Positions 19,680 through 21,113 of a stretch of 64,000 bases of DNA are shown here, piece after piece. The position numbers and the translations under genes are program-made. Each line of letters starts with the position of its first letter. The stretch's first letter is position 1. This DNA comes from Candidatus Hadarchaeales archaeon (GTDB lineage: Archaea; Hadarchaeota; Hadarchaeia; Hadarchaeales; WYZ-LMO6), in NCBI GenBank assembly GCA_038851755.1, contig JAWCKR010000007.1:1-64000 (forward strand), written 5' to 3'. The notes below the pieces were generated by a model that worked only from the letters and a program-made list of their open reading frames with translations, ran no database searches and had not been told where the DNA came from.

Positions 19680-20327
19680 CTACAGGTGGATCTCCAGGCC
19701 CGCTTTACCCTCCACGCTGACGCCTGTAAACCTTTCCAGGATCTCCTTCTTGTGGACGGTACAGTGACTGGGAACGATGAGTCCCAGGTTCGCCAGGGCC
19801 CCGTAATCCCTGAACCCGTGCATCCCTCCCACCAGGCCCCACACCCTCCCAAACTCTGAGGCCTTCGCGAGAATCCTGCGAACCCCGGGATGGGAGCAAC
19901 CCACAACCACCACCAGACCCTTTTTGGTCCTCACCACAAGCGACTGTTCCCTGACCTCTCTCCCTAGCTCTCCCGTGGTCCATACACCCTCGCACACCCG
20001 CTGAGGTCCTCTCACCTCGTGAAGGTCGAACCTGGCAGCCAGTTCCTCCTTCAGCCTCTCGGAGAAAGACTGGGGGACGTAGAGCTCCATATCCCTCCCA
20101 AGCTGAGGCAAACCTCCCAGATGATCCCAGTGGGCATGGGAGATGACCACCCTCTTTATTCCCTCTGACCTCACGCCAAGTTTTTTCAGGTTCGCAAGCA
20201 ACAGGTTACCATCCCAGCCCGTGTCAAAGAGTATCCTCTCGCCCTCCAGCCCCACCAGACAGGAGAAACCCCAGCCCTTTTCGAACCCGGGCTTTGCCAC
20301 ACTGTCATAGGCTATCCAGACTCTCAT
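19680..20327 (-). CDS. MBL-fold metallo-hydrolase (family annotated as dihydropteroate-synthase-like MBL)
   Basis: WGFSCLV, ILFDTG, SHAHWDHLGG, GCSHPG, GGMH, SHCT. The ORF's upstream extension overlaps the tRNA, so the start is set at ATG 20327. Confidence 0.85.
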   Translation of the reverse strand: MRVWIAYDSVAKPGFEKGWGFSCLVGLEGERILFDTGWDGNLLLANLKKLGVRSEGIKRVVISHAHWDHLGGLPQLGRDMELYVPQSFSERLKEELAARFDLHEVRGPQRVCEGVWTTGELGREVREQSLVVRTKKGLVVVVGCSHPGVRRILAKASEFGRVWGLVGGMHGFRDYGALANLGLIVPSHCTVHKKEILERFTGVSVEGKAGLEIHL

Positions 20328-20387
20328 CCAGTCAGCCGGTAAAGACTCATTTTTGAGCAGCCAAAACCTTTCCCTCAGCGTTAAAAA

Positions 20388-20521
20388 TGGCGGGCCCGGT
20401 GGGATTCGAACCCACGACCGTCCGGTTTCCCTGCGCGTTAAGAGCTTCATCCGGTCCTCTCCGGACCGACGGATGCTCCACCAGACTGAGCTTCCCGGTA
20501 GCTTGCGCTACTTACGGGCCC
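20388..20521 (-). tRNA. tRNA-Lys(CUU) with three introns (20492-20512, 20446-20469, 20427-20438)
   Basis: Removing the three segments gives a canonical 77-nt cloverleaf: GGGCCCG TA GCTC AGTCTGGTG GAGC A TCCGG CTCTTAA CCGGA CGGTC GTGGG TTCGAAT CCCAC CGGGCCC G CCA. Each junction forms a BHB or BHL motif. Confidence 0.92.
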
Positions 20522-20547
20522 GGGCCCGATAAAGCTCCTCCTCCCCC

Positions 20548-20560
20548 TCTTAAAAGCTTT
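20548..20560 (-). promoter_or_regulatory. Putative BRE/TATA of tRNA-Lys
   Basis: AAAGC-TTTTAAGA on the minus strand, ~30 nt upstream of the tRNA 5' end. Confidence 0.55.
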
Positions 20561-21113
20561 CAGGACGGGAGGAGTCTCTGCTTGGTTCCGGGAGGACCCT
20601 TTCCAACCTACCCGAGCACTCCCGGCAGAAGGCCCTCCCCTTGGCATCCACTTCCAAGATGGAGTTGGAGAAGCTCATCACGCAACTCCTCCTCGCACAG
20701 TGGCCCAGGCCAAGGGTATGTCCCAGCTCATGAACCGCTTCCTTGACCAGCCTCTCCTGCAGGAGGTTCCCTCCCCCCCTCTCCCGGTAGAATCTGGGAT
20801 CAAGCCTGCACACGGAAACCAACGCCCCCCTCCCCGGGCACTCGGCCAGACCAAAGACAAAGTTCAGACCCGGAGCGTAGAGATCCACACCCGTAAGAGC
20901 CAGGACCCTGCCCTCGCACTGCTTGAGCACTTCCCTGAGGAAAGAAGAGGCCTCATACTGACCTCTGCTCTTCCTGTAAGCCTGCTGGGGTACTTCCAGG
21001 GGGGGCAAGGCAACTGGTTTGAGCTTGCCCCCAAAGGACTCGGGAAGAACAGCACCCAGCTTGGGAAGGACCCAGTAGGGCAGTCTTCCCACCGGGACCA
21101 TCTTCACCTCCAA
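20550..21113 (-). CDS. amzA: Archaemetzincin Zn metalloprotease
   Basis: NFVFGLA, HELGHTLGLGHC...CVMSFSNS...FCREC. Confidence 0.9.
   Translation of the reverse strand: MEVKMVPVGRLPYWVLPKLGAVLPESFGGKLKPVALPPLEVPQQAYRKSRGQYEASSFLREVLKQCEGRVLALTGVDLYAPGLNFVFGLAECPGRGALVSVCRLDPRFYRERGGGNLLQERLVKEAVHELGHTLGLGHCARRSCVMSFSNSILEVDAKGRAFCRECSGRLERVLPEPSRDSSRPESF

Follow-up and report, generated by a model that had tools for sequence, protein, structure and literature searches.

Within the window (the whole stretch of 64,000 nucleotides of Candidatus Hadarchaeales archaeon DNA that was analysed), the minus strand from 20521 to 20388 reads as a tRNA-Lys(CUU) gene composed of four exons (9, 22, 7 and 39 nt) that are separated by three introns. 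Listed in the direction in which the gene is read, its features and those of its flanks are:

20550 to 21113, minus strand: gene for a peptidase of family M54 (PF07998, E 3.2e-28), outside the tRNA and given as context
20550 to 20555, minus strand: TTTTAA box, 29-34 nt 5' of tRNA position 1
20522 to 20528, minus strand: proposed leader decoy CGGGCCC, adjoining tRNA position 1
20513 to 20521, minus strand: exon 1, tRNA positions 1-9 (acceptor 5' strand, U8 and A9)
20492 to 20512, minus strand: intron 1, 21 nt, at 9/10; strict hBHBh' motif whose hairpin covaries across 15 genes
20470 to 20491, minus strand: exon 2, tRNA positions 10-30 (D arm, position 26 and positions 27-30)
20446 to 20469, minus strand: intron 2, 24 nt, at 30/31; strict hBHBh' motif with a 6-bp inner hairpin
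20439 to 20445, minus strand: exon 3, tRNA positions 31-37, holding the anticodon CUU
20427 to 20438, minus strand: intron 3, 12 nt, at the canonical 37/38; bulge-helix-loop
20388 to 20426, minus strand: exon 4, tRNA positions 38-76, with an encoded CCA at 20390-20388
20383 to 20387, minus strand: run of five T, read directly after the CCA

The M54 peptidase gene lies on the same strand as the tRNA and ends 28 nt upstream of it, with its stop codon inside the TTTTAA box. This is the sole TATA-like box, and it may possibly be a TATA element that overlaps the stop codon of the upstream gene. At the other end of the gene, the five-T run is a likely archaeal terminator. Just 3' of the tRNA, also on the minus strand, is a gene for a protein of the metallo-beta-lactamase fold (19680-20340), for which the longest ORF call runs into the tRNA; its true start is probably near 20340.

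All four exons are collinear and contiguous within 134 nt, and the locus is thus neither a split nor a permuted tRNA gene. When the exons were joined by script, the resulting product of 77 nt was called by ARAGORN as tRNA-Lys(ctt); its acceptor stem has 7 bp, its D, anticodon and T arms are normal, and U8, G73 and the encoded CCA are present. An earlier note on this DNA had proposed that a tRNA-Lys(CUU) is interrupted at 9/10, 30/31 and 37/38, by introns of 21, 24 and 12 nt respectively, and both the sequence and the ARAGORN call on the spliced form support that proposal. The note had also expected that standard annotation could miss the gene, which proved right for ARAGORN and for Rfam at its gathering score: the unspliced 134 nt gave no ARAGORN call, with or without the intron option, and the Rfam tRNA model missed the unspliced gene, with 17.2 bits (E 0.5) in a genome-wide run.

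Splice motifs and covariation of the introns

We write the geometry of each splice motif as H/h/h', the lengths in bp of its central, outer and inner helices. Intron 1 has a strict hBHBh' motif of 4/3/5, in which H is formed by tRNA positions 4-7 with the intron sequence CGGG, h by positions 1-3 with 11-13, and the inner hairpin comprises 5 bp. The motif of intron 2 is likewise strict, at 4/4/6. Intron 3 measures 4/1/0 in the unspliced context and 4/5/0, a bulge-helix-loop, with the other introns removed, because intron 2 interrupts the anticodon stem that serves as its outer helix and leaves it incomplete until intron 2 itself is removed. These are the types that had been claimed, namely a strict BHB for introns 1 and 2 and a relaxed BHL for intron 3, and every exon-intron pair was found in BHB or relaxed form with predicted cuts after the second bulge nucleotide.

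A splice-variant search, in which up to three BHB-like segments were removed iteratively from the 131-nt locus, returned a single full class-I cloverleaf among 253 variants (1/122 when only lengths of 72-78 nt were counted). Its cut sites were exactly the six from which the earlier note had derived a 77-nt cloverleaf, by cutting after the second bulge nucleotide in each case. A non-iterative search missed intron 3, because intron 2 breaks its outer helix. Cloverleaves were obtained from 0/50 random 131-nt genomic windows and from 0/50 shuffles of the whole sequence; shuffling the introns and retaining the exons gave some cloverleaf in 13/50 cases, so that the motif filter alone is lax and makes weak evidence.

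Stronger evidence comes from covariation and from comparative data. For the 9/10 intron, the predicted structure paired in 168/168 cells across 15 genes (14 of them distinct, encoding Lys-CUU and CAU tRNAs). Both-sided changes were found in 4/5 pairs of the hairpin, with a covariation score that 0/500 shuffles reached, and the H and h helices of this set are invariant partly because the search pattern fixed both. For the 30/31 intron, again in 15 genes, the 4-nt intron strand of H and exon positions 26-27 covary, pair 2 showing AT/GC and pair 3 TA/CG, and three regex matches outside tRNA genes in the same scan had an H of at most 2.

Conservation of the gene among Hadarchaeales

We compared this genome (G000) with related genomes (G001, G002 and so on) in an order-wide set of 65 Hadarchaeales genomes. 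All three introns are kept in full-length orthologues with 97% (G003), 96% (G002), 92% (G005) and 88% (G001) identity, and in an alignment of Lys(CUU) orthologues made without reference to motifs each intron appears as a discrete block that is either present or absent, as follows:

Intron 1: absent in G017 and G031
Intron 2: absent in G023, G038, G041 and G031
Intron 3: absent in G064

Across the order, the Lys(CUU) orthologues are all interrupted, with intron sets that vary. A pattern search recovered the 9/10 intron architecture in 15 genes from 14/65 Hadarchaeales genomes, spread over 8/19 genera, and the reversed control of the same pattern had 0 matches in the order. The earlier note had taken the 9/10 site to be uncommon and had held that its novelty would fall if such introns proved common in related genomes; on those terms, the novelty of the site falls.

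The genome, from an uncultured hot-spring member of the Hadarchaeota, is a MAG of 26 contigs (1.25 Mb, 93% complete), which raises the question of whether the interruptions might be artefacts of assembly or binning, the more so as DNA contigs from public runs break inside the T-arm, in k-mers common to several tRNAs. Set against this, DNA contigs of runs X1 and X3 cover positions 20391-20700 with 0 differences, and the same structure recurs in the independent genomes G001, G002, G003 and G005, and we consider an artefactual origin so improbable that it can be set aside.

The locus is the only Lys(CUU) gene in this assembly and the decoder of the major lysine codon, with AAG accounting for 80.5% of Lys codons in ORFs of at least 300 codons. 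A second, intact tRNA-Lys(CUU), which the earlier note had named as a finding that would count against the interrupted gene, did not emerge: BLAST of the spliced tRNA against the 93%-complete genome matched its own exons and T-arm similarity only, and ten hairpins with a CTT loop elsewhere in the genome had no tRNA context around any of them. The only other lysine tRNA that ARAGORN and Rfam found was Lys(UUU), on contig 1. Archaeal RNase P RNA had no match in G000 at E <=0.001 (best score 17.7 bits); a gap in the assembly is the most likely reason, because relatives have this RNA, above the cut-off in 19/20 of them.

None of the sequencing runs recorded as RNA contains the locus. Contigs from four public runs showed no splice joints, and contigs of this kind cannot show that joints are absent. 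In two of the runs, which are labelled metatranscriptomic and are probably DNA, a contig from a close relative spans the unspliced gene and 45 nt upstream of it (20391-20566), with 4 differences, two of which are inside intron 3. Its depth was 665 and 878, whereas the long contigs listed for these runs lay at 3.7-31. If these two runs are RNA, the unspliced form would be abundant; the 45 upstream nucleotides fit a precursor with a long leader and prove nothing. The contig ends at 20390/20391 are uninformative on the RNA end, because DNA runs show them too.

These observations bear on a further possibility, that the tRNA gene at this locus is in decay or without function, and that AAG is decoded by tRNA-Lys(UUU) or by another Lys(CUU) gene within the missing 7%. 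The incompleteness of the genome and the lack of joints in the contigs would be compatible with such a state, and tRNA-His, Pro(UGG) and Ala(UGC), which are expected in archaea, were likewise not found in the genome scans. A gene in decay would hardly be expected to have exons that form a perfect cloverleaf, to retain every intron in 5 genomes of the family while the intron helices undergo compensatory changes, to have orthologues that are interrupted throughout the order by varying sets of introns, or to serve a codon as dominant as AAG. We thus hold decay to be very unlikely.

Introns in other tRNA genes of the genome

We delimited 43 tRNA genes in the genome, 16 of which are interrupted. 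They hold 20 introns, 11 at 37/38 and 9 elsewhere; the latter are:

tRNA-Asn: 8/9
tRNA-Lys: 9/10 and 30/31
CAU tRNA: 30/31
Ser-GCU: 28/29
Both Gln genes: 15/16, in the D loop
Asp: D loop
Glu-CUC: 34/35

Lys(CUU) is alone in G000 in having three introns, and in relatives three introns are also found in CAU tRNAs, G042 and G005 being examples. The tRNA-Asn(GUU) gene (G000:C2:6756-6916; L038) combines its 19-nt 8/9 intron with a copy of the acceptor sequence in the leader and a 59-nt canonical intron, and DNA similar to this gene is found in 60/65 Hadarchaeales genomes.

The introns of tRNA-Asp(GUC) (G000:C4:54654-54756, in the D loop) and tRNA-Glu(CUC) (G000:C6:6878-6980, at 34/35, inside the anticodon) are similar to each other, both being 28 nt long with 8-bp hairpins. 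They look like one intron at different sites, which recalls the intron transposition of Thermoproteales, where related introns are described in different tRNAs (PMC4090602). The genes for tRNA-Gln UUG and CUG are located 41 nt apart (G000:C20:15193-15415), with 15/16 introns of 17 and 19 nt. C/D-box guide RNAs are known from tRNA-Trp introns in Euryarchaeota, and the canonical introns of tRNA-Trp (G000:C2:67234-67362, 56 nt) and elongator tRNA-Met (G000:C14:14109-14219, 37 nt), both of which have GATGA- and CTGA-like boxes by eye, may also encode such guides.

A single EndA and the predicted course of splicing

The genome has one EndA gene, encoding 178 aa (G000:C4:40045-40578; L021:1246-1782) and scoring 122.9 bits with PF01974 and 54.5 bits with PF02778, and an RtcB ligase (593.8 bits). 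EndA is followed, with a 1-nt overlap, by a 368-aa ORF which, by its sequence motifs, we tentatively take to be a class-I aminoacyl-tRNA synthetase of the tryptophanyl type. The best matches of EndA among solved structures were the enzymes of M. kandleri (5x89) and M. jannaschii (1a79). Residues 32-178 align to the latter with identical Y, H and K, which we take to be the catalytic Tyr/His/Lys triad. This assignment agrees with the text of Kaneta et al. 2018 (PMC5829648).

A second EndA-like subunit was not found by phmmer --max against 12,312 ORFs, in which the next-best match (E 0.13) was an ORF without a Pfam family, and the beta-subunit model NF007086 matched the same EndA gene only, with no beta gene in the 93%-complete genome. 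Throughout the order, 58/65 genomes had an EndA match, which in 55/58 was a single one, the open frames being roughly 125-250 aa long. With one polypeptide and no second subunit gene found, the enzyme has the composition of the alpha4 type and is, by its sequence, a putative homotetramer. It is collinear with the M. jannaschii enzyme, with a Tyr-His loop of equal length that is 6 residues shorter than in the N. equitans alpha subunit and 5 shorter than in ARMAN-2. The Crenarchaea-specific loop, where the A. pernix alpha subunit has 9 extra residues, is absent, and the enzyme thus lacks both the loop insertion and the beta subunit gene that (alpha-beta)2 enzymes have. Its closest relatives, at 96-53% identity, are genes in MAGs whose titles read Hadesarchaea, Hadarchaeota or Hadarchaeum, with Hydrothermarchaeota and Woesearchaeota coming next, in keeping with the non-crenarchaeal host that the earlier note had supposed.

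Relaxed motifs are frequent in this genome, with an h' of 0 or 1 in 6/11 canonical introns and an h of 0 or 1 in 5/9 non-canonical ones, and these in silico counts do not conform to the strict, hBHBh'-only specificity published for M. jannaschii. Because so many introns have an h' or h of 0 or 1, EndA must cut relaxed motifs if these tRNAs are made. The permissive splicing system that the earlier note had suggested is reasonable in the light of these motifs, and as an idea it is already in print for Hadesarchaea (PMC5829648).

Combined with the conservation described above, we consider it highly probable that the locus is a functional gene, the sole one for tRNA-Lys(CUU) in this assembly, and that its three introns are protein-spliced by EndA and RtcB. 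In such a scheme, a single EndA would cut after the second bulge nucleotide at all six sites, and RtcB would ligate the four exons into a normal 77-nt tRNA. Besides the absence of splice joints from the contigs, a point against this explanation is that the published rule predicts an M. jannaschii-like EndA to be unable to cut the relaxed intron 3.

The three motifs cannot form simultaneously. The intron 1 motif occupies half of the D stem as well as the acceptor 5' strand, that of intron 2 takes the other half of the D stem together with nucleotides 32-34, and that of intron 3 needs nucleotides 32-35 and a closed anticodon stem. Since the motifs of introns 2 and 3 exclude each other, an order of events is implied, and splicing is probably sequential, with intron 2 removed before intron 3.

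A leader copy of the acceptor strand accompanies introns at 8/9 and 9/10

The motif of intron 1 draws on the acceptor 5' strand, and the sequence just upstream of this strand, a leader element absent from the earlier note, is in our view the most interesting part of the locus. The Lys(CUU) leader CGGGCCC is able to form 7 uninterrupted base pairs with the 3' acceptor strand and the discriminator. All genes with a 9/10 intron have GGGCCC, GGGTCCG or GGCCCG located 0-2 nt before position 1, and the variant GGGTCCG still pairs, by way of a G-U wobble. The palindromic nature of GGGCCC makes it ambiguous whether the Lys leader copies the 5' strand. In architecture the Asn 8/9 intron is the same, with H formed between tRNA positions 3-6 and the intron's 3' end, and in its leader, 1-4 nt upstream, the acceptor 5' strand is repeated exactly; since the Asn acceptor is non-palindromic, this leader is a copy of the 5' strand. 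The downstream Asn copy is the real one, being always followed by T (U8) and giving the same mature sequence as in intron-less orthologues, and the base after the upstream copy varies.

We measured, for each gene, the longest contiguous run of pairing between the leader and the 3' acceptor strand. In G000 this run is 8 for Asn and 7 for Lys, and at most 5 for the other 41/43 genes. Runs of 6-7 were found in 15/15 genes with a 9/10 intron and in 0/17 genes that have the same acceptor without the intron, where the run was at most 4. For Asn, the run was found in 15/16 genes with an 8/9 intron, against 0/10 without it; in the sixteenth gene the regex start fell on the decoy itself, and the leader copy is present in 16/16. 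When tRNA-like genes from all loci were taken together, 32 of the 88 had runs of at least 6, each with one of the acceptors found in the 8/9 and 9/10 genes (GGGCCCG or GCCGGGG), and the remaining 56/88, including 34 genes longer than 100 nt, had runs of at most 5. States with and without the intron both occur inside genera g5, g9, g10 and g16, and the decoy tracks the intron. As the genomes are related, these counts overstate independence, and the invariance of the 3' strands means that the decoy offers no covariation test.

Searches of the literature on Hadarchaeota and Hadesarchaea tRNA introns, and on leader, acceptor and BHB, brought up neither introns at 8/9 or 9/10 nor a leader decoy; such positions may appear in Sugahara 2007/2008, in figures and in supplements. 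As far as these searches reach, the combination of a leader decoy with 8/9 and 9/10 introns appears to be a new variant.

Predicted folding of the precursor and a possible role for the leader

In the minimum-free-energy fold of the precursor without its leader, the 7-bp G+C acceptor stem is closed and the intron 1 motif is not formed. When nine leader bases were included, the leader paired with the 3' strand, and the acceptor 5' strand formed H, together with a 3-nt bulge and the hairpin. Over the whole ensemble, the probability of H, P(H), was higher with the native leader than without a leader in 29/29 genes, with the following values at 37 and 70 C:

9/10 intron, 15 genes: native 0.62 and 0.56; leaderless 0.01 and 0.00; shuffled leader 0.11 and 0.05
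Asn 8/9 intron, 14 genes: native 0.48 and 0.49; leaderless 0.00 and 0.00; shuffled leader 0.19 and 0.16

According to these models, the productive arrangement would be nested, with the decoy bound to the 3' strand and the real strand to the intron, and the alternative pairing would form a pseudoknot.

The folding predictions suggest a role for the leader, to which we assign a slightly better than even chance: the 6-7 nt copy of the acceptor 5' strand would pair with the 3' acceptor strand in the precursor and free the real 5' strand. The decoy's hold on the 3' strand would leave the real 5' strand available for the intron 1 motif; once splicing had taken place, the decoy would be displaced by the real strand, and removal of the leader by RNase P would make the strand takeover irreversible. 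If the nearest TATA-like box is the promoter, transcription would start at about -5 and the decoy would be cut to 5-6 nt.

A shared origin would also predict the perfect co-occurrence of decoy and intron. The leader copy could be a footprint of how the intron arose, for example through an event of local duplication or insertion in which the acceptor 5' strand was copied; it would then play no part in folding and be lost together with the intron. An AT-rich box in the Asn genes lies, by eye, at an equal distance to the decoy as to position 1 in intron-less orthologues, and the decoy may therefore occupy the place of the original 5' strand. Several features of the leaders are difficult to reconcile with a mere footprint. 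The decoy is the only part of the leaders that can be aligned across genera, and the spacer ranges between 0 and 4 nt; the sole class of substitution, GGGTCCG, is one that retains pairing with the 3' strand; and in the Lys, CAU and Asn tRNAs the decoy in each matches its own acceptor. Moreover, the intron 1 motif is predicted hardly to form without the decoy, and loss of the intron through cDNA would leave the leader element in place. We consider a footprint without function rather unlikely, and favour the folding role.

We also raise, with somewhat more doubt than belief, a broader reading in which 8/9 and 9/10 introns make up a distinct Hadarchaeota class that exists only together with a cis-acting leader decoy, in organisms whose one-subunit EndA is without the loop insertions of broad-specificity enzymes.

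Discussion

tRNA genes with several introns, and endonucleases permissive enough to process them, are known, and Hadesarchaea have been flagged for both; the Lys(CUU) gene described here is itself a well-documented added case. A survey of EndA and tRNA genes by Kaneta et al. 2018 (PMC5829648) took in Hadesarchaea archaeon YNP_N21, of the same phylum, and permissive splicing was already inferred there. The compared text of this survey gives no intron positions, three-intron Lys(CUU) or leader element. Hadesarchaea EndA is said there to carry an L3 loop, whereas no L3-like insertion was found in the EndA of this genome.

In Thermoproteales, too, a gene can have as many as three BHB-type introns, a canonical site being combined with two non-canonical ones; the tRNA-Pro(UGG) of Pyrobaculum islandicum, interrupted at 25/26, 37/38 and 56/57, is an example (PMC4090602). 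Their EndA is an (alpha-beta)2 enzyme with the Crenarchaea-specific loop (PMC4090602), in contrast to the one subunit gene without such a loop found here. The text of that article names non-canonical sites at 3/4, 20/21, 22/23, 25/26, 29/30, 30/31, 45/46, 53/54, 56/57, 59/60, 'etc.', and neither 8/9 nor 9/10 is among the sites named in the compared parts of PMC4090602 and PMC4033280. A 2008 case cited in PMC4090602 has a splice site in or beside the acceptor stem, with a motif that competes with acceptor pairing, at a position different from those described here.

Asgard archaea, which are also non-crenarchaeal, have many non-canonical and multiple introns, with up to five per gene, and their D-arm introns escape annotators (PMC11291895; Goswami et al. 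2026, 10.64898/2026.10.13.758758). Most of their genomes encode two EndA paralogues, against one here, and the compared parts of these two reports mention no leader decoy (PMC11291895; 10.64898/2026.10.13.758758). In Nanoarchaeum equitans and Staphylothermus, Lys(CUU), the tRNA species discussed here, is split at 30/31, where intron 2 also lies (Chan et al. 2011, PMC3218864). There, separate half genes are joined in trans (PMC3218864), whereas here the site holds a 24-nt intron in cis.

The gene itself, which is invisible to common tRNA finders, requires six cuts and three ligations. Wider significance could lie with the leader decoy, an RNA element predicted to resolve the conflict between acceptor stem and splice motif. 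In addition, it suggests a rule for annotation, in which a repeat of the acceptor strand in the leader flags an intron at 8/9 or 9/10. The current account places the choice of archaeal tRNA intron sites in the subunit type and loops of the enzyme, and the enzyme here looks like one of the strict type. If the proposed role of the decoy is true, splicing would be forced to precede RNase P cleavage, and devices on the RNA side, not only enzyme loops, would decide where tRNA introns persist.
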